A stretch of DNA of 64,000 bases from Balamuthia mandrillaris (taxonomy: Eukaryota): positions 124,001 to 188,000 of the forward strand of contig JAVKOQ020000077.1 in NCBI GenBank assembly GCA_031835245.2, written 5' to 3'. The position numbers and the translations under genes are program-made. How positions within the stretch are numbered: position 1 is the first letter of the stretch; every line of letters starts with the position of its first letter. This document shows positions 22,919 through 45,139 of the stretch, piece after piece. The notes under the pieces were generated by a model that was not told the DNA's origin, did no database searches, and saw only the letters and a program-made list of their open reading frames with translations.

Positions 22919-25046
22919 ATGATGGACGGACAGCCGCAGTGGAGTGTGACGAAAACGTTGTCGTCCGCCGAAGATTTGCTGAAGGCTGGCAAAGAGGAGC
23001 TTATCAAGGAGGTCATTCGGCTGCGGCACGACAACCAACGTTGGAAGGAGGAGAGCGAGCGCACCAAAGACGAGAAGCTCCAGCTCGAGTACCAGCTTTT
23101 GATGCTGCGACAACAAATCGCACAGCTGAAGGAGCAGCTTTCTTCGTCTCTTCTTCCTCAACATCCATCTCGCCCTCCTCCCTTTCTTTCCTCCTCCTCA
23201 TCTTCTGCTGCTGCTGCTTTGACGAACGTTCCCTCGCCTCTTCCTCTTCCTCCTTCTGAACGTTCTGCTGCCTCTGCTTCCTCTTCGTCACCTCCTTCTT
23301 CTCCTCCGCCTAACCAAGAAGCCCTCAACCGGCAGCCCTTCAAACAACCTCTTTCGCCTTCCTCTTCTCTTTCTCAGTCCTCCTCCAAAAAGCAAGGCCC
23401 TTTGCTCCCACCCACAGAGTTATCGGTCTCTTTTGCCTTCGATGAGGAGGAGGAGGAAGAAGAAGACGAACCCAAAGAGCAAGCAGAGGCTCGGCGAGGG
23501 GAAGAGGCGCAGGCTCCTTCCACCCCTCCTCGTTCTCTTCTACAGACAGGAGGGACATTGTTGCTGTCGGTGGCTTCGCCGCAGCTGTTCTCTCCGTTGA
23601 CGCCTTCGCCCATCAACCTCAACAAAGTGTATCACCATGATGAGGACGATGTCGACGCCGATGCTGCCTTTGCACGTCCCATTCCACGTCCTAGACGAGA
23701 GCTCTCTTTCAGCGATGACGATGATGATGAGGGTGAGGTTGATGCAAATAATGTAAGAGAAGAAGAAAAAGAAGGCGAAGGCGAAGGAGAAAGCAGACGA
23801 GTAGAGGTTGACGAAAAGGAAGATGGAAAAGGAAAGAAGGAAAAAGTAGGTACCAATGGAGAAAGTATCGAAGAAAAGAGACAGAATGACAAACTAGAGG
23901 AAGAAGAAGAAGAGGTAGAAGTCGTGATGGTAGAAAAGAAGCCCAAAGAAGTTGTGTTAAACAACATTTCATCTATCCTCTATGCTTCATCGCCTTCTAT
24001 CGTTGCAGATGAAGGGGCAGTTGCTGGGATTAGTAGCAGTGGAGGAATATCTCTGTTGGGAACCTCATTGCTCTCTCCGATGCTGCCATCCTTCAATTCT
24101 CATCGACGAGATCGTTCTATTCTCTCGTTGTCACATACCAAAGCTTCTTCATCGCCGTTTGCAGCTGCTTCAATCTCATCTTCATCTTCTTCTTTAACTT
24201 CATCTTCGGCTTCATCTTCGTCTACATCGTCACCTTCGACCTCATCTGCTGTTTCTCCTCCTTCTGAAGGCGGTTTAGTGGCGAAAGAAACCGCATCTAC
24301 CAGCAGTAGCAGCAACGACGCGCCATTTTCCTCTTTACTGGGCGGCCTAAACCCACTTCAACGTAAAGCAGTAACACAAGATATCACATGCCCACTAACC
24401 ATCATCGCAGGAGCGGGCAGCGGCAAGACTCACACTCTCTGCAGTCGCATCGCTTATCTCTTGCAACAAGGGATTCCCTCTCATCAAATCGTGGCGCTGA
24501 CTTTCACTCGAGCAGCAGCCAACGAGTTGAAACTTCGCGTTCGAGACATGTTGCGAAAGAGTCAACTTCACGGAGACAACATCAAAAACAGCAACTTTGG
24601 AAACGGTGAGCGAAGATTAGAGAGATCGTCGTCATTTGCTTCCTCCCTTTCCCTCAAGACTGGCACATTCCATTCATTTTGTTTTGGGATTTTGCGGCTT
24701 CATTGCGAGTTATTGGGATACAGTCCAAACAATTTGAAACTGGTGAGCGAAAAGAAACAAGAATATATCATTCAAGAGGGCATCCTGCTTTGGCGGAAGA
24801 GACATAACGGACAGTTGGACCACGGCATCATGAGGAGATTCTTTGGCGATGATGGCCAGAAATATGGTTCATCAACAAAGGATAAGAACAAGGAAGCAGA
24901 AGAAGATGAGAACGAATCGGAGAAATATGGGCTGAAGAAATTGTTCGCAGCTGATGACCTCAAAGCTATTCCAAAGCCAGAAATAGAACAGGTATGTGTC
25001 AACTCTTTTTTTTAAAAAATGAGATTTGTCTTTATGATACTGATAC

Positions 25047-25082
<36 letters not shown>

Positions 25083-28000
25083 CTGTATCTCTTGCTACCT
25101 TTGAATTTTCGTTATCAGTTTGTCAACTTTGTAAGAAAGGCAAAGTCAGCAGGGAATGATGCCTCGGAATACCTGGAGGATTATCGGTTCATACTGCGCC
25201 ACTATGAACGTCGCCTTAAAGACGAGAACAGCATTGATTTTATCGATATGCTGAGGCTGACTTTGCGGCTCTTCCAAGAACACCCTCACGTCCTTGCCTA
25301 TTATCGAGAAAAGTATCAATGGGTTCTTGTTGATGAGTTTCAGGTCTCTTTTTGTTCTTAGTTTTTTCTTTACTTTTTTCTTCTAAAAGAACAAACGAAA
25401 CAGGACACAAACAAGCTACAATATGATCTGATTTGGGCGTTGACAGAGCATTCGGGACATTTAACAGTGGTGGGCGATGATGACCAATCCATATATAATT
25501 TCAGGGGCAGCAACTCCGAGTTTATTCGCTCCCTCCACATGCGCTTTGAGGAGAAAGCCAAGGCTGCAAACCAGATTCTGCTGGAACAGAACTACAGAAG
25601 TACTCAATCCATTACGGACTGTGCCAACGCTTTGATCAAGGTTTTGATTAAATGCTTCTGTATAGCCCATCTTTCCCCTAACTTGACAACAAAACACCCA
25701 ACTTTATTATTAGCAAAATTGTAAGCGTCTGGAAAAGAAGATGTGGACAGACAACGAGAAAGGAGCACCCGTTCAAGTCATAGAATGCCAAACGGCAGAA
25801 GAGGAATCAGACTTCGTGGTAAAGTGCATCACGCATCTTGTGGCAGAAGGCCAACGCTCTTTTGCCGACTTTGCAATCCTCTTCCGAGCTCGCAACATAG
25901 CACCTGGTTTCGAGCAGAAAATGAAACGACTAGGTATTCCCTTTAAGACCGGAGGAAACAAATCGCTGCAAGACAGAGCCGTCGTTAGGGACATTCTTTC
26001 GTATGTTACTTTATTGATCGATCCGAAGAACGACAAAGCGTTCAAAAGAGTGCTAAATGTACCTGCTAGAGGGTTAAGCAAAGGTTCGTTAAACTGTTAT
26101 CTTTGCTTACCTTTCCACTTTTTGTTCTGTTTCTCATTTCTTTAACAAAGGGGCATTTGCTTATTTGGCACAATTGGCAACGGATATGAGCGAGCAACAA
26201 CAAGCCTCATCGTTATCTTCCTCCTTTTCTTCATCCCAGTCTATCTGCTTCTCGCCAACCAGTAACAAAAAGCGAAACAAAATCAGCTTGTACGAAGCTG
26301 CGATGCATGCTTCTGCCACACGTTTTCCTGCCGTAAACTCTCCTACCCGAACTATTTGTTTGACGCCGAAACAAAAAGAACATATGAATGGCTTTCTAAA
26401 GATGATAGAAGAAATGCAAGAGAGAATTGGACATTGCACTCTGGTGGAAGCGTTGGAGTTTGTCATCGAGAGGAGCGGTTACAAAGAACATCTTTGGAAA
26501 AAACAGAACAGAGGAAACAAAAATTCGAAAGTGAAGAACGCGAAGATGAGCAAAGTGGTTCTTCCTCATCCTTCCAAAGGAAAGAAAGAGAGTGACCAAC
26601 AACAGGAAGAAGAAGAAGAAGAAGAAGAAGAAGAAGCAGCAGATTTCGGTTGTGCGGACAGAAATCCCAAGTTACCTGGAGGAGAGCACCTCGAAGAATT
26701 GATCAATCGTGCCAAACATTTTATGCAAGACGAATGGGAAAAAGATCCTTCAGTACATAACTCAGAGAAACAGGAACAAGCAGAGAAAGCTGCAGAAGGA
26801 GAAGATAAGCAAATGGGAAAAAAGAGAAGAGAGTTCATAGGACTATTCTTGAAGTGGATAGAAGCGCAGAGTCCAGAGGAAGAAGTGGCTCCCAGCAATG
26901 CCACGCCCAAAAAAAAAGAATCCAACAAGAAAAAAACTAAACAGAGCGATGTGGTTGCTGTTACAACCATCCATCAAGCTAAAGGTTTGGAATGGCCTGT
27001 CGGTATGTCTTTTTTGCTATCTCTATTCATTCTTGCCCTCTGTCTTCCTTTCAAACGTAATCCAAGACTGTTATAACTTCTGTTACACTAGTGTTTGTGG
27101 TGCGGTTCAATGAAGGTGTAATACCTGTTATTCACCGCACATCACCAAGCGGATCGTTGAGTGGCGGAGCTGACAACAAAACAGAAATGCTGCGTAGTCA
27201 CGTTGAGGAAGAACGAAGACTTGCTTATGGTTCTCTCTCTCTCTCTCTCTCTCTGTGCGAACTATTTTTATTGCTGTTGTTGTACTTCATTGTTCTTTCT
27301 AAAATGTGGCTAATTGTTCTGTTTCTCCTTTTGCGTAACAAACTTAGTGGCAATGACAAGAGCAAGACAAGTTCTTTACTTGACCTACACAAAGACGAAT
27401 ACGTTTAACAAACCCTCTCCTCAATCTCAGTTCTTACAGGATTTGCCACCCGATCGAATAGAAACGAGCATAGCTACAATGCACTTGTCTCAGTTCAGCG
27501 CAGCTTCCATCGCGAGAAAAGGCGGTTCTGTTAAACGCACTTCAGCTTCTTCTGTTGGACGTCAACTTTGTTTTGGAGAAGACAACAAGGAAGATAAAGA
27601 GAAGGAGAGAGAAAAAGAGCAGGAACATCAACAACAAACTTTTCTTACAGCAAGACAATGCATGGCGCAATCCTCCCAAAAGCAACAGGAGAAGGAAGAG
27701 AAAAAAGGAACTAACAAAGCTGAAGATACTACCAAGAAGAAAAATACTTCCTCTTCCAAACGAAAAACTACCATTGCTTCTTCTTCTTCTTCTTCTTCTT
27801 CTTCTTCTTCGAGCACAGACAACAAGGGTTCTTTCGCTGCATTCTTTGCTCCACGCAAACCTGTAATAGCCGTTCAAGACAAAAACAACGACCAACGAAG
27901 TAACGTGGCGGAAAACTCGAAAAACAGTAACGGCAACAAAGAGACAATAACTCTATCGCAGAAAAGCTCTTCAGCACCTACCAGAGCGAAACGTGGAAAA

Positions 28001-29596
28001 GAAGGAGCATATCCTCCTATACTCTTCACACGGCTTCCAGCTACTGCTTCATCGTTCTTCAACCCTTCCTCACCTCCTTCACCTCCTCCTTCTTCATCAA
28101 AGAACTTACAAACAACTACAAAAGTAAAACAAGAACAAGAACAAGAAAGCAAAAACAACGAAAAGGAACAAGCAACAGAGAAAGAAAAAGAAACCGGAAA
28201 AGAGAACGAAAACGAGACAACATCTGTAATTGTAAATAGCAATGTATTGGAACGCAGGAATAAGCGACGAAAAAGAAAGAAGTTTCTAGACGAGGATGAA
28301 GACGAAGATGACGATGTGTTTGAAGTGAATCCAACAGCAACGATAAAGAAACAGAAAAGTGAAGATATACACGAGAAACAAGACCAAAAGGAACTCGTGA
28401 CGACAGAATCAGAAGCTGTTGCTGCACAAACACAAAACAGAGAACAAAAGGGATACAAGAGAAAGGTAGAAGAACATGACGAAGAGAAACACGAAGAAAC
28501 AGAAACCACAAAGAAAACAAAGAACGAGGAGAAGAAAGTTGAAGCAGAAAACAAAAAATCTACTCCAACCGACAGCAACAACAGCATCGAGAAAGAAAAG
28601 CCGCGCAAATTAGATTTGTGCATGGCACAACCCAACGCACAACTTGTTGCTAAACCTATTCCCTCTCGCACGAAGAAGAACTTGCGAAAAGCGCTTCAAG
28701 AAGAAAACACCATTCGTTCCTGTCGTACCATTACCTCGTTCTTTGCACCAAAGGCAGGTAGTCTGCCTGCAACCACGCGCAAAGAAAAGGAATCATCTTC
28801 TTCGGCTTGTTTATCTTCCAACGAGAAAGAAAATGTGATCAACCAAAAGGCATCCAACAAATCTCCTCCTCCTTCTTCTTCTTCTTCTTCTTCTTCTTCT
28901 TCTTCTTCTTCTTCCTCTTCGTCTTCCTCTTCTTCCTCTTCGTCTTCCTCTTCTTCCTCTTCTTCTGCTGCTACTGCTTATTCTCCATCAGGGGAAAGCA
29001 AGAACATTTCTACAGCATCACCTACCTCATCTATAGACAAGTGCTTTTTAGCTGCAACAGGTACAACAAGTGCCCCTCCTCGCTTCTCTTTCGGTCAGGC
29101 TTGTCCCCATTGCACTGCTTGGTTGTCGAAAGAGCAGCTAGATAACGGTTTTCGAAAGAAAGGAGATGAAATCCAATCAACTTCAACAACAAATAACAAC
29201 GCAGACGATGAAAGGAGGAAGAATAAGGAGAGGAAAGAAAACGATTATAGATTGGACAGAACAACAGCATGCAATCGTTGTGGTAAACGGTTTGCTGCTT
29301 TGATGAAAGTTCACGTTAAACTTGTAACAACAACTAATGACGAGAAGGAGAAAGAACGAGAACAGGAAGAAGAAGTGGAAGTGATGTTTATGGGAAAGAT
29401 ACAATGTGTAACTGCCATGAAGCAAAGACTGAGGAAAGAAAAGAGAAGCGGATTTGAGAGGATGCGGTTGGCGACGGAAGACCCCGTGTTGGGTTGGAAC
29501 TGTCTCTATCACTACGGCTCGCTGAAGGAGGCGTTGCTCAAAATCTTCCCCAAAGAGAACTGGAACCGTGTTCTCTCCTCACGGAAACCTTCCTGA
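22919..29596 (+). CDS. UvrD/PcrA/Srs2-like SF1A DNA helicase with long disordered extensions (multi-exon)
   Basis: LNPLQRKAV (Q motif), AGAGSGKT (I), LTFTRAAANEL (Ia), TFHSFC, LVDEFQD (II), VGDDDQSIYNFRG (III), LEQNYRST (IV), TIHQAKGLEW (V), EEERRLAYVAMTRA (VI). Confidence 0.95.
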
Positions 29597-30267: not shown

Positions 30268-31477
30268 TGGGGCAATTCAAGTCAGCGGGTGACCCCCCTG
30301 CGCAATACACCGACGAAGTACGTTTCGTACTGCGCCACTATGAACGTCGTTTAAAGGAAGAATAGATTTTGTAGATATGTTGCGACTCACTTTGCAACTT
30401 TTCAAAGCACATCCCTCCGTTCTTGATGCTGTTAGAAAAAAGTACAAGTGGATTCTTGTCGATGAGGCTCAGGTATCAGTTCTGGCGCTGTTATAACTTG
30501 CCGTCGTTCTGCACTCTGTCATCTTGCTTGTTCATGTTGAGTGCATTTGGTGTTTCAAGTTGACTTTGTTAACCAAAAGCAAAAAACAGGATATGAACAA
30601 GCTACAACACGATCTGATCTGGGCGATGACGGAGCATTCAGTTAACAATGGTAGGAGACGACGATCAAGCCATCTATAACTTCAGAGGCGGCAGCTCAGA
30701 GTACATTCGCTCCCTCCAACAGCGTTTTGAGGAGAAAGGCAAGACCGTAAACCAGATTCTTCTGGAACAGAACTACCGAAGTTCCAAATCCATTACCAAT
30801 TGTGTGAACGCTTTAATCCAGGTTATTATTAGTATTATTTTTTTTCATTCTGTCTTGCTTGGTTTGCCTGGCTGAACACCATATGCAAACAAAAGCAAAA
30901 TCAGAAACGACTGAACAAGAAAATGTGGACGAAGAATGAGCAAGGGTCAGCTGTTCACGTAATCGCGTGTGCTTCGCCAGAGGAAGAAGCTGACTTTGTA
31001 GCACAGTGCATCCTGCATATCAAGACACAAGGCCAACTTACATTGCTGACTTTGCAATCCTCTTCAGAGCTCGCTACGTTGAACCTTCGTTTGCACAGAA
31101 ATTTAAACAACTGGACATTCCGTTTTTGACCCGAACGAGCCTACCACTTATGCACAAAGCTGTCGTTGAAGACGTTCTTGATTATGCTGGTTTGTTGAAT
31201 GAGCCAAAGAATGACAAAGCGTTTAAATGTGTGCTTAATGTTCCTGCAAGAGAGTTAGGCCAAGGTATGTAGTAATGCTTCCTTATGTTTTCCATCTTCT
31301 AATCCTATTTTTGCAGTTGTTTATCCTACAAAAAGCGACATTGGCTTACTTAAAACACCCAACCACAAAGTTGATTCAGAAAGCGAAGCAACAAGCACGG
31401 GCTTCCATTGCATCATCCTCGCATTCAACAAGCCATTTCAGCAAACGAAACGACGTCAGTTTGTATGAAGCTGCTAT
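30268..31477 (+). pseudogene. Decayed partial tandem duplicate of the UvrD-like helicase (motifs II-IV region)
   Basis: Parallels about 25140-26305: RHYERRLK, WILVDEAQ, VGDDDQAIYNFRG, LLEQNYRS, ADFAILFRAR, PKNDKAFK.VLNVPAR, SLYEAA. Introns are at the same three positions. Small frame-disrupting deletions near 30362, 30640 and 31038. Lacks motifs I, V and VI. Confidence 0.88.
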
Positions 31478-32461
31478 CTAGGGGTCTGGTGAAAATTTTC
31501 CTGACGTCAAAGCGTCCTCCACACGCACCCTTAGCTTGAAGCGAAAACAAAAGGAGAAGATAAGGGCTAGAGGACGAGCTGACACTCCGCGGGGCGGAAC
31601 CTCTTCCCGAGGTGCTACCCAGCGATAGCAGATTAATCCACACCCGCTGGGGCAAGTACTACTTGGCCATACCGATGCCTTTGGAGGGGAGCGATAATCA
31701 AGCTCCCTCCTCCTCTAGGGTGCCCAAGGTAGTGGCGATCGACCCAGGAGTGCGCACCTTTATTACTTGTTATGTGGGTCCCGAAGGCAAGGCTTACGAG
31801 TGGGGACGGAACGATATCGGACGCATCTATCGTATTTGCCACTATCTGGACGACCTCCAGAGCCGATGGGGCCAACCAGGCGTCAAAGCCAGACAGCGCT
31901 ATCGCATGCGAAGGGCAGCGGCCCGAATGAGGGAACGTATTCGCAACCTGGTGGACGAGGTACACAAGAAGATGGCCCTCTGGCTGGTCAAGAAACACGA
32001 CCTGGTGCTGCTGCCCAAGTTCGATACCAGCAACATGGTGCTCAGGCGGAGCGGGAGACGTATCCCAAGCAAGACCGCCAGAGCCATGCTGGGTTGGGCG
32101 CACTACCGCTTTCGCATGCGCTTGCTGAACAAGGCCAGGGAGTACCCCCACTGCAGGGTGGAGATCGTGGACGAGCACTACACCTCCAAGACCTGTGGAA
32201 GATGCGGACGTATCCACCAGAAACTGGGAGGGAAGAAGGTCTTCCGTTGCCCCCGTTGTCGCCTGGAAGCAGACAGAGACATCCATGCTGCCAGGAACGT
32301 CCTTTTGTGTTTCCTGGCACATCAGGACATCATTGTGGCGAAAGGTAGGGAGCTGTACGGACAGAGTCCGGCAGCATTGGGTCCTACACCCGTGAATGCA
32401 TCCACCCATTGTGGTGCATTAGTGCAAAGATTTGCAAAATGATGTGCAAGTTTAATGTAGG
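31478..32461 (+). mobile_element. 5'-truncated Fanzor2 / IS607-like element remnant
   Basis: Abrupt switch from helicase-derived sequence to intronless GC-richer sequence at about 31478, a TnpB-like ORF, and a structured 3' end finishing in GTAGG at 32461. No transposase seen in the window. Confidence 0.75.
31564..32442 (+). CDS. Fanzor: Fanzor2 (TnpB-like RNA-guided RuvC endonuclease), N-terminally truncated
   Basis: Open frame from 31564: AEPLPEVLPSDSRLIHTRWGKYYLAIP (WED strands), VVAIDPGVRTF (RuvC-I Asp), RIRNLVDEVHKK, VLLPKFDT (Pro at the canonical RuvC-II Glu), IVDEHYTSKTCGRCG (alternative Glu and Zn finger), FRCPRC, DRDIHAARN (RuvC-III Asp). In-frame stops at 31537 and 31561; first ATG only at 31675. 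Confidence 0.92.
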   Translation, partial: GLEDELTLRGAEPLPEVLPSDSRLIHTRWGKYYLAIPMPLEGSDNQAPSSSRVPKVVAIDPGVRTFITCYVGPEGKAYEWGRNDIGRIYRICHYLDDLQSRWGQPGVKARQRYRMRRAAARMRERIRNLVDEVHKKMALWLVKKHDLVLLPKFDTSNMVLRRSGRRIPSKTARAMLGWAHYRFRMRLLNKAREYPHCRVEIVDEHYTSKTCGRCGRIHQKLGGKKVFRCPRCRLEADRDIHAARNVLLCFLAHQDIIVAKGRELYGQSPAALGPTPVNASTHCGALVQRFAK

Positions 32462-32481
32462 CGTCTCCCGCTCAACACTTT
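32370..32481 (+). ncRNA. Putative Fanzor omegaRNA (fRNA) scaffold plus flank-derived guide
   Basis: Stem GGGT/ACCC (32379-32391) with loop CCTAC complementary to GTAGG (32457-32461). Hairpin AATGCA-T-CCAC-CCATT-GTGG-TGCATT (32395-32420). Hairpin TGCAA/TTGCA (32423-32436). Overlaps the ORF 3' end as in TnpB/Fanzor loci. The 5' boundary is unknown. Confidence 0.65.
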
Positions 32482-32696
32482 TTGGCTCGCGATTCCCATG
32501 GCTGGTTATCTTTTTTTGTCGACGATTCATCGAATAGTATTATTTGGGTTAATCGATACTATTTTCTAATATTGTAATTATTGTCCTCATATATCGATAT
32601 TTTTCGGTTAGGATTATCCACGCCGATCAATTTAATCGAAATTTCGTATATCCAACATGAAAATAGAAACGAGGAAGAGGACACCAAACATCAAGC

Positions 32697-34010
32697 ATGG
32701 ACGCGGCGAGTATGCTGCCCACGGAGATGTGGTACGCAGTGCTGGTCGAACACCTGCCCAAGGGGGCCAGAGGAGTAGTTGCCACCGTTTGTTGGACTTG
32801 GCGAGAAGTAATCAAGGGATTAGCCCCACCAGCGCAAGAACGTAAGATATCACGAACCTACTGCTGCGAGCACACTCTGGACCTAGCGAAATGGGCCGTT
32901 TATTACGAAATCGACTCCATGAGGAACCTCTACGACAACGACTTTATGTACGGTGCCATTTCTGTTGGCAACCTCGACGTCCTCAGATGGCTGGTGGACG
33001 AAATGGGCTGTCAAGCCCATGACGAAGGGGAGTATCTCTATCGCGCCGCCGAGTGCGGTCATTTGCACGTGCTGCAATGGCTCGTCGACGAACACGAGTG
33101 CACGATGTGCGAGACGGCTTGCGAATTTGCGGCACACGGGGGCCACCTGGATGTTTTAAAATGGGCCAAAACACAAGGATGCAATATAACGAAAGAAGTG
33201 TGCCATGAGGCCATCCGAAAAAACCGCATGGACATGTTGGTGTGGGCAACCATTGAAGGAGACGCTTGCTTGGATGCCGAAGCCTTGTCCATGGCCGTGG
33301 AGACTGGCAACTTTGAGTTGGTGGCTTGGCTTGTCGATGAAGCCGAGTGTCCATGGGACGAGACAGCTTCTTCGACAGCGGCCAGGAGTGGCAACTTGAA
33401 CATATTGCGCTGGTTATTGGAAAACGGTTGCCCTAGCAGCAGCTCTGATTTGTTCGTGGAGGCAGCAGCCGGGGGTCATATAGACACAATGCAGTGGTTG
33501 CTACATGAAGGATATCAATGGGATGAGGACACGTGTGCCAGTGCCGCACAACATGGACAGTTGGAGGCATTGCGATGGGCACGTAGTAACGGCTGTCCTT
33601 GGGACGAACAAACCTCCATCAACGCCATCGAACATGGACGAATGGACATACTTAAGTGGTCGCGGAGCATGGGATGTCCGTTGAGCGATCGCGAGTGCGC
33701 ACGCGCGGCCGCCAGAGGTCATACCGAAATTCTTCGCTGGCTGAGGGAGAACGGGTGTCCTTGGGACGGACAAACCTGTTTCAACGCCGCGAGATACGGA
33801 CACCTCGAAACGCTCGCTTGGGCACGAGAAAACGGTTGCAATTGGAATGCCGAACGTTGTAGAAACGCAGCTGGTATACATAGACATCGCCGCGTTGTAC
33901 GCTATATAACAAACACCCTCCGGCAGGAAAGTGGCTTGCCCACACGCAACAAGAGCGAATCGCATAGACGCAGAAAAAGAAGAAGAATGAATAAAAACAG
34001 TTTTGTTTGA
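32697..34010 (+). CDS. Intronless F-box-like + ankyrin-like repeat protein (giant-virus-style)
   Basis: LPTEMWYAVLVEHLP...ATVCWTWREV followed by about 12 repeats of GCPWD..TC..AA..GHL..L.W; basic NLS-like tail RRRKRRR. Confidence 0.9.
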   Translation: MDAASMLPTEMWYAVLVEHLPKGARGVVATVCWTWREVIKGLAPPAQERKISRTYCCEHTLDLAKWAVYYEIDSMRNLYDNDFMYGAISVGNLDVLRWLVDEMGCQAHDEGEYLYRAAECGHLHVLQWLVDEHECTMCETACEFAAHGGHLDVLKWAKTQGCNITKEVCHEAIRKNRMDMLVWATIEGDACLDAEALSMAVETGNFELVAWLVDEAECPWDETASSTAARSGNLNILRWLLENGCPSSSSDLFVEAAAGGHIDTMQWLLHEGYQWDEDTCASAAQHGQLEALRWARSNGCPWDEQTSINAIEHGRMDILKWSRSMGCPLSDRECARAAARGHTEILRWLRENGCPWDGQTCFNAARYGHLETLAWARENGCNWNAERCRNAAGIHRHRRVVRYITNTLRQESGLPTRNKSESHRRRKRRRMNKNSFV

Positions 34011-34230
34011 TGCCAACCTGATGTGTTTTTTCTTTTCTTTCGCCCATGCATTGAAAGTACGAAGTCAGAGAAATGCAGGACCCGCCCGTGCTGCCCATTC
34101 TGCCCGCTCACCGCATCCACCCCGACGAGGACTGGGACAACCCCACCCTGCCGGAGGGTGTTTGTTATATAGCGTACAACGCGGCGATGTCTATGTATAC
34201 CAGCTGCGTTTCTACAACGTTCGGCATTCC
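33844..34230. repeat. Perfect 84-bp inverted repeat (33844-33927 / 34147-34230, 219-bp spacer)
   Basis: GGAATGCCGAACG...CCCTCCGGCAGG is the exact reverse complement of CCTGCCGGAGGG...CGTTCGGCATTCC. Confidence 0.95.
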
Positions 34231-34604
34231 GGCCAGAGCGAGTTCCACCACCCCGAGTCCCTAATACAGCCAGCGTCCCCACGGTCTCCTGCCCTGGTTC
34301 GGTCGGGCGCCCGTCACCGCCCTCCACCCGGAGCCCATCGAGGCCCATATCCTTCACCCGGCCAAGAAGGCCGTGCACACCGCCGAGAACGTTATCAACC
34401 AAGCCTCAACAGACCAAAACGATTGGTCTTCGTCACATTCCTCTTCGCGTTCTTCTTCTTCATCTTCTTCATCGTCTTCTTTTTCTTCTTCTTCATCATC
34501 ATCTTCAGCTAGAAGACTGTTTCAATTATTTGACCTCAAGTTCGAGGGAATGTAAATAAGATTGTTTATTTTCTTCTCCACTAAAATATATTAGCTAAGG
34601 CCTG

Positions 34605-34887
34605 TTATTCGCGCAAAGCTCCTCCCTTCATGAACAAAAAAGCCATAACCCCAACAACAGCTCCTCCAAAGGCCATCTTGTACATCCAACTATGCGATGG
34701 ATGACAGTTCTTGAAGCTGTGGAGAGCTCTTTGCCAATCCGGATGGTCTTTGCCCAACTTCTCTTGCCATATGTCGAGCGCTTCTTCGTAGAAGGGAAGA
34801 GCTTTCTCCGGTTTGTTTTGTTTGACGTATAGTTCTGCTAGTTCGAATAAAGTCTGTTTTGTATTTTTTGAGCGTAAAGAGTTTAGA

Positions 34888-34932
<45 letters not shown>

Positions 34933-36693
34933 ACAAAAGGAAAGAAAACATACGGAGCCGTAGTCAGGATGCCGTTTGGTGCCAAGGGTTGCTTCCCGCA
35001 TGGACAATGCTTCCAAGAAAAGCGGCTCCGCCAAGTCGTATTTCTTCTGTTGCACATAGAGAGTTGCTAAGTCGTGTAGTCCTTTCGCCAACTGTTGTTT
35101 CGGTAGTTTAACAAAATGCTGATATAGAGGGAGAAAAGGAAAGAGAGGAAAGGAGAGGGGAGAGAGAGCCAAGAAGAGGGAGAAGAGAGAGGTGAAAGCT
35201 TTGACAAAAGGAAACAAAAGAGCAAACCTTCGAATGCTTGTTGCCGAGCACCTCCTTCAAGATCGCAATAGAGCGTTGTTGAATGCGTTCTGACTTTTCG
35301 TATTTGCCCTGCAGTCGGTAGAGCACCGCCAACGTGTTCAAGGAGCGAGCAGTGTCGGCATGAAGTTCTCCAAACGTGCCTTTGCGGATTGCCAAGGCTC
35401 GTTTGTGAAGAGGTTCTGCCTCATCATAACGTTCCATGTTTTGATAAATTTCTGCCAAGTCATGTAAACTCCTATTTGGAAAGAAACATTGTTTTAGGAA
35501 AGGAAGTACAACAGAAGGGAGTAGCAAAAGAAAGCAAGCAAGACGACAAAAAGAAGGAGAAAGAAGAACCTTGCCACTTCGGGGTGATGTCCTCCAAAGA
35601 AGTTCTCCCTGACCTCAAGGGCAGTGATAAACAGCTTTTCCGCCTCGGCATACTTGCCTTGCCGAAAGTTGATCCATGCCAAATCGCCTTTGGTGGTGGC
35701 CAGTTCTGGATGTTCTGAGCCATATGTTTCCTTCATTTTATTTTTGTTCATTTCAATTTGTTAAATAAATAATAGAGCTTGATAGGATTATTTGTACCTG
35801 CAATATCCGGAGAGCATGATTATAATTTTCCACAGCCTCGTCATATTTGCTAGGATAAGGAAACGTTTAGCAGTGGTACTCCAACACACACACTCTCTCT
35901 TTGTGTCTAGGTAGTAACTTACCCTCGTGTGCCATCCAGATAAGCAAGGTCGTGGTAGCTCTCAGCACAATCTGTTGTTTTAAAGCGGTAATTTGCAAGG
36001 AAAAGGTTAAAAAAGAATAACAAAGCAAACAGAAAGAAAAAAGTACCAGGATGGTTTCGTCCTAAACAATTTTCTCTTATGGCCAAAGAGCGGCGATAAA
36101 GAGATTCCGCCTCATCGTATTTGCCCATTTTCATGTTTGTCTTCGCCAACTCATGTAAGCACTGAGCCACTTTTGGAGTGTCTCGCCCGAAAGCTCTTTG
36201 TAACGTTTCGAGAGCGCTGAGGTGAAGGGCTTCCGAGTCTTTGTATTTGCCCTGATAAAACTTGAGAGTAGCTGTATTAAACAAACTTCGCGCTATAAAA
36301 ACATGAACCAATTAGCAAAAGAACGAGAGGAGCGACCGAGAGAGGGAAGAAAACACTACTGACCAACATCAGGATGAGAAGTTCCAAAAGCAGTCATACG
36401 AATGCTCAAGGCTCGCTTGTTTAGCGTCTCTGCTTCGTCATATTGTCCAATCTTCTGATACAGTTCAGCTAATTCATGCAACGACCGAGCCACTAACGGA
36501 TGCTGTGACCTACAGTCAGAAAACATAGAGACACTACAAAAATGTGAGAAAGATGACGAAAGAGAACCTCTTGTCCCATTGTTTCCTCTCGCATCTCCTG
36601 AGACTGAGTGTACAACTGAATAGCTCTGCTGTATTTCGCTTGCTGTTGGCAGTAGACAGAAAAAGAAAATAAATTAATGATTATTTGAAGGAA

Positions 36694-36734
<41 letters not shown>

Positions 36735-39700
36735 AAATAAAACGTTCAAGAACCTTAAAGTAAACCCAAGCAAGACTGCTAAGACAAAAGGCTAAATCAG
36801 GATGGCTCTTCTCACCGTAGCAGTTCTTCAAGATTGTTAGTGATCGCTTGTAGAAATGTTTTGCCTTCTTGTAAAGACCCCTTGTGGCATACAGATAAGC
36901 CAAGTTATTCAACGACTCAGCACAATCTGGATGGTCTGAGCCTAATTTCTTTTCCTATTATATACATTTTTCAAACATTAGCTTGAAGAAAAACACAAAA
37001 AACATGAGAAATGAAAATTCATACTTGAATTGCTAGAGCCCGAAGATAAAGAGGTTCCGCTATGTTTCAGAAAAGAGTGAGTAGGATGAGAAAACTATCA
37101 AATAGAATAAGAGAGATCAAAAGAGAGAGAGAGAGAGAGAGAGAGAGACAAAACAAAAACGAAGCAGTACCTTGCTCATATTGACCGACTTTGTAGTAAA
37201 GCTTGGCCAACCCTTGCAAACCAATGGCAACTTTGGTGTGTTCCTTTCCCAAAGCTTCCTCCAAGATGGCCAACGAACGACGGTACAAAGCCTTGGCCTC
37301 GTTATAGTTGCCTTTGTCAAAGAACAGCTCGCCAAGGTTATGCAAGCTTCGTGCAATCTCCACATGAAACTTGCCAAACACTTTCTCGCGCACGGAAAGT
37401 GCTCGCTTGTTCAGCGTTTCTGCTTTGTCCAATTTGCCCTATAAAGGAAGATAAATATGGACAAATCGAACAAAGGGTAACACAAAACTAGAAGCAAGAG
37501 TTTACCTGGACGTGATAAAGCTTAGCAAGGTCATGCAAAGATCGTGCAGTATCAGGATGGTCATTGCCGAGGTACTTCTCCCTGATGTTCAAAGACTCTG
37601 TGTATAGCTTCTCTGCCTGCTCAAAGCTGCCTTGCCTAAAGTAAATCCAAGCGAGAGCGTTACAGCTCTGCGCTACTTCCGGATGGTTCTCTCCAAACAG
37701 CTCCTTCATGATCGTCAGAGAATGCTTGTAATGCTTCTCGGCCATGTCGAACTTGCCCTGCGTGGTATAGAGGTAGGCTAAGTTGTGGAGCGTGATAGCG
37801 ACGTCGGGATGGTGCGTGCCGAGGGCAGAAATGCGAATGCCAAGGGCGCGTTTGTAGTACTCCTCGCTCTTGGGGAAGCGGCCCATGCGATAGTACACTT
37901 GAGCCATGTCATGAAGGCTTTGAGCTACTTTGATGTGGTCTTTGCCGAACACTTTTTCTAAAATTCGGAGGCCTTTTTTGTGGAGTTTCAATGCTTCATC
38001 GTATCTATCCGAAGAGAGGCGAGTTAATAAAGACAAAAAAGAAGAAAGTTATTCACCTAATATTACCTTCCCTCAGAGAAGTAAAGATTGCCAAGATTGC
38101 AGTAACTGCGGGCCACGTCGCTGTGTTCCGTTCCCAGCACCTTTTCTCGAATGGCCAGTGCACGCTGGTTCAGCGATTCTGCTTGTGCGAATTTGCCCTG
38201 TTTGTGGTATAGCTCTGCCAACTCGTGCAACGAACGTGCCACATCCGGATGTACCTTGCCGAATGTCTTTTCTCGGATTTCTAGCGCTAGTTTATAGAGT
38301 TTCTGGTGATTTATATTCGTTTTAGTAACATAAAGAATAAGAAAAAGCTAAGTAATGAGGAGGAAAGCAGTAAATAATGAAAGATGAGGAAAAGAATAAA
38401 ATAAACGCACAAACCTCCGCTTCGTCATACTTGGCTTGTTTGAAATAGATCCAGGCCAAGTTGTTTCGGTTCTGTGCGACGGAGGGGTGGTCCTGTCCAA
38501 AAGTCTTGTGGAGGATGGCCAACGATCTGTCGTACAACATACAAGCCTCCGCGTATTTGCCTTGCGTTGTGAATAAATAGGCCAACATATGAAGTACGTC
38601 CACCAGATCTTTTTTAAGAACAAATACGGTTTAGCGTTCAAAAATGCGAAATAAAGAAGAAAGCACAAGAGAGAAGAAATCTTAAAAATTACCAGGATGA
38701 TCAGTGCTAAGGGAAGCCTCCTGGATGGCCATACAACGCTTGTACATGAGTTCTGCTCTTTCGTATTCTCCTTGCCTGTAATATAGATTGGCCATATTGT
38801 AGAGGCCATGCGCCACTGTAACGAAAAACAATTGTAAGAAGGGAGAAGAAGCATAAAAGAATTTTGACATCGATAATCAAACCTTTAATATGGTTGGAAC
38901 CCAATGCACTCTCGTAGATCTCCAAAGACCGTTTCTGAAGGGCCAAGGCCTCCAAATAGTTGCCTTTAGTATAATAGAGCTCCGCCAAGTGATTGAGAGA
39001 GTCAGCTAGATCTGTATGAGTATAACCAACTGATTGCTTTGTTGATAGATTGACAAAACACGGAAAACAAGGTTGGTTAATATGGTTGCAATAGAAAAAA
39101 AAAACAAGGGCAGAAACAGAAAAATAACGATTTTACTTGTTGAATGCTGAGGGCACGTTTGGTCATTTCTTCAGCTTTTGGATATTTTCCCAGTTTTTGG
39201 TATAGCTCTGCTAGTTCTTGCAAACATCTGGCAATGTTCGGATGCTATTTGAGAAAGAATGAAAGAGCGATGAGCATGGGTGAAGAACAGTAAAGAGACA
39301 AATGAAATAATAGACACCTCTTTTCCAAGTGATGTTTCACGTATGCGTTGAGATTCCTTGAACATCCTTTCAGCTTCCTCGTAGCGTCCTATATGAAACT
39401 TGAACGTTAACAAGAGCAATAAAGAAAAGGGAGAATAAAGGGAGGAAGTTAGGGAAGAGTGAGAGAGAGAGCGAGAGAGCAACCATGCTTGAAGTAAATC
39501 CAAGAGAGTTTGTTCCTTGTGATGGCGATTTCAGGATGATCAGCGTCCAGCGAGGAAACCAGAATTTCAAGTGACCTTGTATACATGCTTTCTGCCTCCT
39601 CATACTTGCCCTGAGCGCTGTAAAGGTAGGCTAAGTGATGCAGATTCGGAGCAAGCCTTGGATGGTCAGGACCAAGTGCATTTTCACGGATGTTCATAGA

Positions 39701-43732: not shown

Positions 43733-45139
43733 ATGTTGCATCAAAAGCGCAGGATAGCCGACAAGGAAGACGACGAAGGACTGGACGGATCCGCCACGAA
43801 AAAACCACGAGGAGATAAAGCCGAGGTCGCTTTGTGGGAAGAATGCTTGCCAGAGGAGCTGCTGTGTGTCATTTTGGCCGCGCTGGATCCGTTGTTCGTG
43901 GGCATAGCGGCCAGGACCTGCCGCACTTGGTACTCCTGTGCTCCGGAGCAGCTGCGAAACCGTTTGTTCCAGGCAGCCGTTTGCCAGTCTCTCACGCTCT
44001 TACAATGGGCAGTCGAGGAGAACGGTTGCCCTCTGGACAAAAAAATGGCCGCCCTCATAAGCAAATGCGGTAGCTTGGAAGCGTTGAAATGGGCTCGACT
44101 GGAAAAAGGCTGTCCTTGGGACATTGAGGCTTGCTCTTCAGCTGCTGGCAACGGACATTTGGAGGTGTTACAATGGGCCAGAGAGAACGGGTGCCCTTGG
44201 GGCGCTCAAACTTGCCAACAAGCTGCTAGGCACGGCCAGTTGGAGGTGTTGAAATGGGCTAGAGAGAATGGATGCCCTTGGGACGAGGCTACTTGTTGCT
44301 CTGCTGCTTTTGGTGGCCATTTGGAATTGTTGCAATGGGCACATGACAGCGGATGTCCTTGGGACGAAAGAACTTGCTCGTGGGCTGCCTGGAAGGGGAA
44401 CCTGAATGTATTGAAATGGGCAAGCGAGAATGGCTGTCCTTGGGATGAAACTACCTGTTCCTCAGCCGCCAGCAAAGGACATCTGGAGGTGTTACAATGG
44501 GCCAGAGAGAAGGGGTGCCCTTGGGATGAGAGCACTTGTGCTCATGTTGCTGAGGAAGGACATTTGGAAGTGCTAAAGTGGGTGAGAAGAAACGGATGTC
44601 CTTGGGATGATGACACATGCACAGCAGCAGCTGAAAGAGGGCATCTAAAAGTGTTGAAATGGGCAAGAGCAAATGGCTGCCCTTGGAATGAAGACACTTG
44701 TAATATGGCCGCAGAGTATGGCCACTTGGAGGTGCTAAAGTGGGCCAAAGAGAACGGATGTCCTTGGAATAAGCAAACATGCCATCACGCTGCAAGGAAT
44801 GGACATTTGGAGGTATTGAAATGGGTCCGAGAGCACAGATGCCCCTGGAGTGCAAAGACTTGTGCTTTGGCCGCCGAGTATGGCCACTTGGAGGTGCTGA
44901 AGTGGGCCAGGGCAAATGGATGTCCTTGGAACGAAAAGACATGTTACTCAGCTGCTAGCACCGGACAACTGGAGGTGTTAAAATGGGCGAGAGCAAATGG
45001 ATGCCCTTGGAACCAGCTGACTTGGGGCATGGCGGCGATGTACGGACACGCAGAGGTGTTGCAATGGGCAAAGGAAAACGGATGTCTTTCTTTCACCAGG
45101 GCTGAAGAAAACGGAGTCTCCGACTCGGACCTGCATTGA
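43733..45139 (+). CDS. Intronless F-box-like + ankyrin-like repeat protein (about 13 x 27-aa repeats)
   Basis: LPEELLCVILAALDP...AARTCRTW then tandem GCPWDExTCxxAAxxGHLEVLKWAREN units with an 81-nt period. Confidence 0.92.
   Translation: MLHQKRRIADKEDDEGLDGSATKKPRGDKAEVALWEECLPEELLCVILAALDPLFVGIAARTCRTWYSCAPEQLRNRLFQAAVCQSLTLLQWAVEENGCPLDKKMAALISKCGSLEALKWARLEKGCPWDIEACSSAAGNGHLEVLQWARENGCPWGAQTCQQAARHGQLEVLKWARENGCPWDEATCCSAAFGGHLELLQWAHDSGCPWDERTCSWAAWKGNLNVLKWASENGCPWDETTCSSAASKGHLEVLQWAREKGCPWDESTCAHVAEEGHLEVLKWVRRNGCPWDDDTCTAAAERGHLKVLKWARANGCPWNEDTCNMAAEYGHLEVLKWAKENGCPWNKQTCHHAARNGHLEVLKWVREHRCPWSAKTCALAAEYGHLEVLKWARANGCPWNEKTCYSAASTGQLEVLKWARANGCPWNQLTWGMAAMYGHAEVLQWAKENGCLSFTRAEENGVSDSDLH

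Follow-up and report, generated by a model that had tools for sequence, protein, structure and literature searches.

The 64-kb window analyzed here, a stretch of 64,000 nt of Balamuthia mandrillaris DNA, very probably carries the last 901 bp, at the 3′ end, of a Fanzor2 transposon of the IS607 type (31563 to 32463, plus strand), a copy predicted to be inactive in which the right end and a predicted omegaRNA scaffold survive. The limits of the remnant are the points where other copies diverge from it upstream and downstream, and missing from it are the left end, the transposase, and the first part of the nuclease. The family it belongs to is multicopy; in it, right ends greatly outnumber coding regions, and at least one other copy is present in RNA.

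Based on profiles and its translation, the remnant contains a Fanzor2 open frame of 292 codons (31564 to 32442, plus strand) that encodes the C-terminal part of the WED domain, the RuvC domain, as well as a zinc finger. The frame is bounded by a TAA at 31561 and a TGA at 32440; its first methionine is codon 38, and it has no start for a full protein. All of the motifs named in the preliminary description were found in it, on the plus strand: AIDPG (residues 58 to 62, 31735 to 31749) with the RuvC-I Asp60 (31741 to 31743), LLPKF (residues 149 to 153, 32008 to 32022) with Pro151 replacing the canonical RuvC-II Glu (32014 to 32016), VDEHYTS (residues 202 to 208, 32167 to 32187) with the relocated catalytic Glu204 (32173 to 32175), a C4 zinc finger identified by profile match and motif reading (32194 to 32259; CGRC at residues 211 to 214 and CPRC at residues 229 to 232), and DRDIHAARN (residues 237 to 245, 32272 to 32298) with the RuvC-III Asp239 (32278 to 32280). 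Asp60 aligned with the DPG motif of the mimivirus nuclease ApmFz2, Glu204 aligned with its NEY motif, and Asp239 was placed by the same alignment; D60, P61, G62, P151, E204, and D239 were unchanged in all 39 aligned relatives. Rearranged RuvC sites are described as having Pro or Gly at the RuvC-II Glu and a substitute Glu approximately 45 residues downstream (PMC10530073, accessible text); here, P151 and E204 are 53 residues apart. The RD of RuvC-III directly follows the zinc finger, in the order given by a published motif definition (PMC3627910, accessible text). The Fanzor2-type rearranged site proposed earlier, with DPG, P151, E204, the zinc finger, and D239, was therefore borne out.

In profile searches, the frame matched Pfam Cas12f1-like_TNB (E 4e-18) and OrfB_IS605 (E 4e-7) as well as NCBIfam guided_TnpB (E 2.6e-30, exceeding the model cut-off), whereas IS200_TnpB remained under its threshold (65 versus 425 bits). 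Judged from sequence, the match to TnpB/Fanzor profiles is not by chance. The closest solved structure was the mimivirus Fanzor2 (PDB 9B0L), both by sequence (E 2.7e-20, rank 1 of 18) and in a fold search with an AlphaFold model of the frame (pLDDT 72.6; E 2.1e-10, rmsd 3.9). The coding part has a GC content of 58%, versus 43% upstream and 36% downstream. Within the 64-kb window, tblastn found no second Fanzor2 copy, and the only match to the right-end motif was the element itself.

The earlier view that the copy is incomplete, lacking an N-terminal REC/HTH region, also held: the NTD, HTH/REC, and part of WED are absent. Relatives of 420 to 505 aa aligned with the frame only from their own residue ~120 to 250 onward, mostly 160 to 250, and a tblastn search of the window with the front parts of relatives of at least 420 aa gave no match upstream of the frame. 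What lies there instead is a partial pseudogene duplicate of a UvrD-type helicase (30321 to 31562, plus strand; Pfam UvrD), which shows 71 to 75% DNA identity to 25185 to 26085 within the intron-bearing parent UvrD/Srs2-type gene (about 24380 to 29596), 5 kb left of the junction. The duplicate aligns with its intact paralogue right up to 31562, and the few bases common to host and element give the left truncation junction a possible short microhomology (31562 to 31569, plus strand; contig ends and paralogue alignment). Contigs of longer copies in the DNA runs X2, X5, and X7 start matching at 31563 and differ upstream, and one X7 contig extends 694 nt further upstream past the junction. The two in-frame stops pointed out in the preliminary description, TGA at 31537 and TAA at 31561, are indeed present, but since the element is joined to the UvrD pseudogene at 31562/31563 they are host sequence, which rules them out as nonsense mutations in a decayed Fanzor gene. 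Most likely, the nuclease gene was cut by a rearrangement in the form of a deletion, which would have brought the broken UvrD duplicate and the middle part of the nuclease gene together at the short microhomology. A UvrD-Fanzor fusion that rescues the frame was rejected because of the frame changes and the stop found in the duplicate; in-frame AG sites exist upstream of the junction, yet no reads of the RNA run X22 fell on 31400 to 31537. Two alleles of the UvrD duplicate were visible in X2.

It is very unlikely that the left junction was created by misassembly and that the true locus carries a longer or whole element. The element is repetitive, none of the matches listed was a contig spanning the junction, and in X5 the UvrD duplicate continues differently beyond 31556. 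However, the window copy has private alleles absent from the longer copies, X2 has exact contigs on either side (31267 to 31476 and 32398 to 33873), and the join falls at the plausible microhomology. With a truncation by deletion, the consequence for function can be predicted from ApmFz2, in which the TAM is read by REC residues and one WED residue and the NTD is required for the RuvC fold (PMC11832414, accessible text). Since TAM reading and RuvC folding need the parts that are missing here, the window copy is predicted, by this analogy, to be dead.

On the other hand, the right side of the element survives. The preliminary description, which had recognized the frame, missed the intact right end and the predicted omegaRNA scaffold (about 32340 to 32463) that overlap the 3′ end of the 292-codon ORF. 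Other copies depart from the window sequence after 32463 in all three DNA runs (X2, X5, and X7) as well as in X22, an RNA run. The right end is thereby placed two bases beyond a predicted pseudoknot. The predicted scaffold (32340 to 32463, plus strand), composed of stem-loops and this pseudoknot, was delimited by fold, covariation, and contig ends, its 5′ limit lying somewhere in 32340 to 32375, and in the pseudoknot, supported by covariation in relatives, the loop at 32383 to 32387 would pair with 32457 to 32461 (plus strand). Close relatives have a small hairpin downstream of RuvC-III and, 53 to 127 nt later, the complement of its loop followed by NG; the 5-nt loop differs among relatives, and the partner changes with it. 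The 5-bp partner was found in 20 of 23 close relatives versus 2.7 expected, 2 of the 20 pairings (L081 and L113) looking like chance; the 23 are what remained of 32 loci preselected by identity after removal of 3 that were short, 3 without the anchor, and 3 duplicates. With a stricter anchor, the partner was present in 16 of 44 loci versus 1.1 by shuffling and 2.4% with loops swapped between loci (the 44 anchored loci include the window, and 91 of 159 loci had enough sequence). The region folds modestly better than shuffles (z = -2.0, 8/200), and Rfam gave no relevant family for it. Together with the pseudoknot position in known systems, at the last scaffold bases both in ISXfa1 and in the ApmFz2 omegaRNA (PMC11832414; accessible text for both), the covariation leads us to predict that this segment is an omegaRNA scaffold.

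By analogy with TnpB/Fanzor2, the predicted guide segment would be the flanking host DNA at 32464 to 32483 (plus strand), for which the window has no second full match. In ISXfa1, the scaffold ends in CGG and the TAM is GGG, according to the accessible description. By analogy, the TAM of the Balamuthia family may end in CG, a prediction for which we see the chances as about evenly balanced and which is consistent with the CCG of NlovFz2. An IS607-type element would be expected to have a dinucleotide core at each end and neither terminal inverted repeats nor a target duplication; the left end, which the window copy lacks, was not readable from the sequencing runs either, and an alignment of two relatives, made for the left end and TAM, fixed no left end.

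Longer members of the family are found elsewhere in B. mandrillaris. The gene model KAL6042635.1 (P0224) is identical to the frame at 111 of 115 residues (97%). It encodes MerR-HTH and Resolvase domains, i.e., an IS607 TnpA, and then a REC/WED stretch (43% to P0121), with no match to Pfam HTH_OrfB, and it stops before RuvC-II, at residue 115 of the window frame. By eye, its residues just before the start of the window frame match the translated loose end of runs X2 and X21. P0224 is a machine-made, chimeric gene model that NCBI already labels TnpB. The IS607 TnpA missing at the window locus is thus present in a 97% identical copy; it is also present in related loci, at least 10 of 17 of which have, by eye, a TnpA-like upstream overlapping frame with a YARVSS-type motif. 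A second model, KAL6077437.1 (P0129; 86% identity over 58% of the query), is named acyltransferase (NRF-6) and holds a Fanzor2 fragment of the same family; it is probably a mis-joined model over an insertion. The best identity besides these two was 63%. The idea that full-length members exist elsewhere in the genome was therefore supported in part, by longer copies such as P0224 and the X7 contig, but no intact full-length family protein was found among proteins of 160 to 511 aa or 512 to 2000 aa.

P0224 differs from other proteins in its WED domain, where 107 residues separate two anchors versus 18 to 29 in 112 others (the distance was measurable in 113 of 260 proteins). The resulting 88-aa insertion consists of 34% Lys/Arg. 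The structure model of P0224 is poor (pTM 0.35) and suggests a long helix at 500 to 542 and disorder at 546 to 583 for the insertion, which might impair P0224. P0224 and P0129 seem to read part of the insertion in different frames, so that at least one of them is damaged or mis-modeled there. A 33-aa charged insertion was seen at the same WED site in L083/P0049.

The element was present in five B. mandrillaris samples. Summed contig depth, which is not copy number, increased about 30-fold in X2 (~37 at the left flank, 1114 at the right end) and about 17-fold in X5 (5 and 90), with only a ~2-fold rise over the 5′ part of the ORF. This pattern suggests that short right-end derivatives are numerous and long copies few. 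Of 28 listed ORF differences between copies, 23 were synonymous, versus 23% of possible changes, and none was a stop (binomial p of about 7e-11, although the sites are not independent and the 28 are the best-supported subset, partly from diverged sister families). Some X7 contigs were 85 to 88% alike over 31855 to 32114 and differed on both sides, which suggests, at the level of sequence, that the organism also harbors other, diverged Fanzor2 families. Horizontal transfer into other species was rejected: X15, X16, and X20 contain only 151- to 244-nt pieces at a depth of 2 to 4.7, and those among them that are near-identical look like B. mandrillaris traces.

The transcript evidence comes from RNA libraries of samples other than the window's, with small omegaRNA beyond their reach. 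In 5% of the run X22, 170 reads covered 31563 to 32463 at ~13- to 38-fold, and none lay beyond 32503; 3% of the run X21 gave 55 reads. The X22 depth peaked in the middle of the ORF, unlike the DNA profile, which argues against DNA carry-over. All X22 reads carried non-window alleles at 31626, 31640, 31731, 31762, 31763, 32421, and 32426, and the source of the RNA is therefore another copy. Among the changes listed, this copy showed no indel before 32426 and no stop. The reads were in both orientations, and the RNA strand is not fixed by the library.

These data bear on whether the window copy supplies guide RNA in trans, as SpuFz1 ghost loci that encode no protein do, a reading that we consider distinctly improbable. 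The scaffold with its predicted pseudoknot is intact, ghost omegaRNAs work with SpuFz1 (PMC10432273, accessible text), and right ends outnumber coding regions. However, the X22 reads were all non-window at the seven sites and their depth was zero from 32504 (this sample may lack the copy), the window scaffold has four extra bases versus most copies, and no promoter is evident because the left end is gone.

A whole element of this family would work through the steps known from related systems, in which IS607 elements recombine at matching dinucleotides and TnpB/Fanzor2, with the right-end RNA and its flank, cut TAM-adjacent DNA, according to the accessible literature. Movement of the DNA would fall to the TnpA serine recombinase, acting at a matching dinucleotide, CG to judge from the right end. 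The Fanzor2, as work on TnpB and ApmFz2 suggests, would bind an RNA made of the right end and about 20 flanking bases and would cut the vacated site beside a short motif, and repair from the occupied copy would then restore the element. Whether any copy still does so is a matter of the family rather than of the window. With a probability that we place a little short of even, the whole family is a relic, with no copy in this species that has escaped truncation or damage and with RNA that stems from read-through or stray transcription of broken copies. The two size-range searches gave no intact protein, the P0224 and P0129 gene models are both partial, some copies have 1-nt deletions at 32230 and 32303, and there are far fewer coding regions than right ends. 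However, copies are 97 to 99% alike in places, most of the listed differences are synonymous, neither an indel nor a stop is listed for the transcribed copy across the RuvC region, and one contig extends 694 nt upstream of the junction; moreover, since gene models mis-call the element, as with P0129 and P0224, its absence from protein sets counts for little. Rather unlikely is an active IS607 family in which at least one intact transcribed copy, encoding TnpA and a Fanzor2 with the 88-aa WED insertion and using a CG-ending TAM, moves itself and dozens of short guide-RNA derivatives to strain-specific sites.

The preliminary description placed the element in an amoeba-like genome, which was supported by eukaryotic flanks: the intron-bearing UvrD gene on the left and, on the right and outside the element, an intronless ankyrin-repeat gene (32697 to 34010, plus strand) with B. 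mandrillaris paralogues, joined to the right end by a 1475-nt X2 contig. The relatives of the ankyrin gene (25 to 49% identity) comprise 120 matches, including 5 B. mandrillaris paralogues, protists, and 2 named Pandoravirus. Those Pandoravirus homologues of an intronless neighbor, and the enrichment of Fanzor2 in giant viruses in the accessible literature, could be taken to mean that the segment is an inserted giant-virus fragment or bacterial contamination and not a host-resident transposon, which we regard as extremely unlikely. The best prokaryotic matches were 40 to 47% identical (80 loci kept of 533) and none of the viral matches (79 loci) exceeded 49%, versus 55 to 62% for eukaryote-labeled and source-unassigned proteins; viral contigs gave no exact match to the right-end 21-mer; and the element is found in the five B. 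mandrillaris samples and adjoins an intron-bearing gene. Bacterial contamination is thus largely refuted. A viral source was also rejected, as the single-protein scan gave nothing, in line with the 21-mer and alignment results, although the first entry may have been by a viral route.

Several other features were observed in the window. The ankyrin gene has, by eye, an F-box-like start, and its 3′ end is copied in a perfect 84-nt inverted repeat (33844 to 33927 and 34147 to 34230, 219 nt apart); X2 contigs break at both arms, and one X7 contig ends at 33929. The AT-rich stretch at 32559 to 32620 attracts contigs from other places (X2, X5, and X16) and is probably a small dispersed repeat. By eye and from the ORF list, a multi-exon gene with TPR-like repeats lies at about 34600 to 38050 on the minus strand, and an array with an 81-nt period occupies 44141 to 45088 (9 shifted copies at 64 to 71% identity).

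Acanthamoeba castellanii and giant viruses are already known to carry IS607-Fanzor2 elements (PMC3627910 and PMC3673617, accessible text), and several Fanzor2s are, by the accessible accounts, characterized nucleases that already work as editors. We found no report of a Balamuthia Fanzor, Fanzor2, or IS607 element in the openly searchable literature; one paper, in its accessible part, mentions IS607 for Acanthamoeba and Balamuthia in a reference only. Balamuthia is absent from the searchable supplements of PMC10530073, PMC10432273, and PMC10711439, the first of which hardly names species and so makes a weak blank, and the accessible main text of the Balamuthia annotation paper (PMC10471605) has no transposon terms. 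The Balamuthia family is thus apparently unreported, though of a known element type. The window copy itself is an ordinary broken transposon, and the family matters modestly. Whether IS607 elements actually transpose within a eukaryotic genome is a question that Gilbert and Cordaux did not settle in the accessible text of PMC3673617. The Balamuthia family lends itself to testing this, since its right end is sharp, its flanks are many and different, one copy is evenly transcribed, and several strains are in culture. An active family, if true, would mean that an insertion sequence of prokaryotic type transposes inside a eukaryotic nucleus and has a natural repertoire of guides. An intact copy, if found, would add one more compact Fanzor2, in which only two points would be new for engineering, namely the WED insertion and a short scaffold that covaries (about 90 to 125 nt). 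With the pseudoknot covariation in the clade, there is also a simple rule at hand by which the ends of omegaRNAs can be located in many relatives.

The preliminary description treated the rearranged RuvC site as characteristic of Fanzors and IS607-associated TnpBs. It does mark Fanzors and a subset of TnpBs, but IS607 TnpBs as a whole do not share it: the typical site is found in the IS607 TnpB of ISXfa1, and TvTnpB has the rearranged site together with a TnpA of the IS605 type (both from accessible text). A canonical IS200/IS605 TnpB was rejected by Pro151, the IS200_TnpB score below cut-off, and a partner that is a serine recombinase and not Y1. Fanzor1 was rejected as well: 8GKH ranked 26 (16% identity), a pseudoknot is supported here, and the family carries an IS607 TnpA, whereas the accessible literature describes Fanzor1 as having an omegaRNA without a pseudoknot and as carried by eukaryotic TIR or Helitron elements. 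A quick tree placed the frame apart from three canonical TnpBs (97% SH-aLRT, long branches). Inside the rearranged-RuvC group, the two quick trees, which left out 17 and 19 chosen loci, mostly cyanobacterial, and the second of which had no outgroup, leave eukaryotic versus cyanobacterial rows unsorted. L160:1133-1915, on a 2-kb contig from a Bacteroidetes bin, grouped with the metagenome locus L114 (99 to 100%) apart from the cyanobacterial rows and is possibly a mis-binned eukaryotic element.

Among known systems, as described in the accessible parts of the sources cited, the cyanobacterial pro-Fanzor IS607 TnpBs (10.1101/2023.08.09.552727) share the DPG and the shifted Glu at 40 to 47% identity, but they are prokaryotic and less similar to the frame than the eukaryote-labeled or source-unassigned relatives (55 to 62%). 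NlovFz2 from Naegleria lovaniensis (PMC10432273), likened here by description and not by sequence, is a Fanzor2 in an amoeba genome that is active in human cells; its TAM, CCG, fits the CG-ending motif predicted for the Balamuthia family, whereas no transposase association is reported for it in that text. The IS607-like Fanzor2 elements of A. castellanii (ACa-1 and ACa-2, PMC3627910; Ac3 and Ac4, PMC3673617) are also amoebozoan, with a TnpA and a TnpB-like ORF, mostly fragmentary, some of them transcribed, and with purifying selection reported (PMC3627910 and PMC3673617), but they come from a different genus and again are likened to the Balamuthia family by description and not by sequence. In Balamuthia, numerous independent flanks define the right end, whereas for Acanthamoeba PMC3673617 was unable to demonstrate transposition. 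Finally, ApmFz2/ApmFNuc (mimivirus L79, from the IS607 element ISvMimi; PDB 9B0L; PMC10530073 and PMC11832414) shares with the window frame the DPG, the relocated Glu, the zinc finger, and the RD, and with the family an IS607 TnpA and, as predicted by computation for Balamuthia, a right-end RNA with the pseudoknot at its last scaffold bases. However, the window frame is only ~25% identical to it and lacks the NTD, REC, and part of WED, and the predicted Balamuthia scaffold is shorter than its 205 nt, at about 90 to 125 nt. The Balamuthia element also differs in closing its right end in GCG, in having a long basic WED insertion in its family, and in residing in an amoeba nuclear genome.
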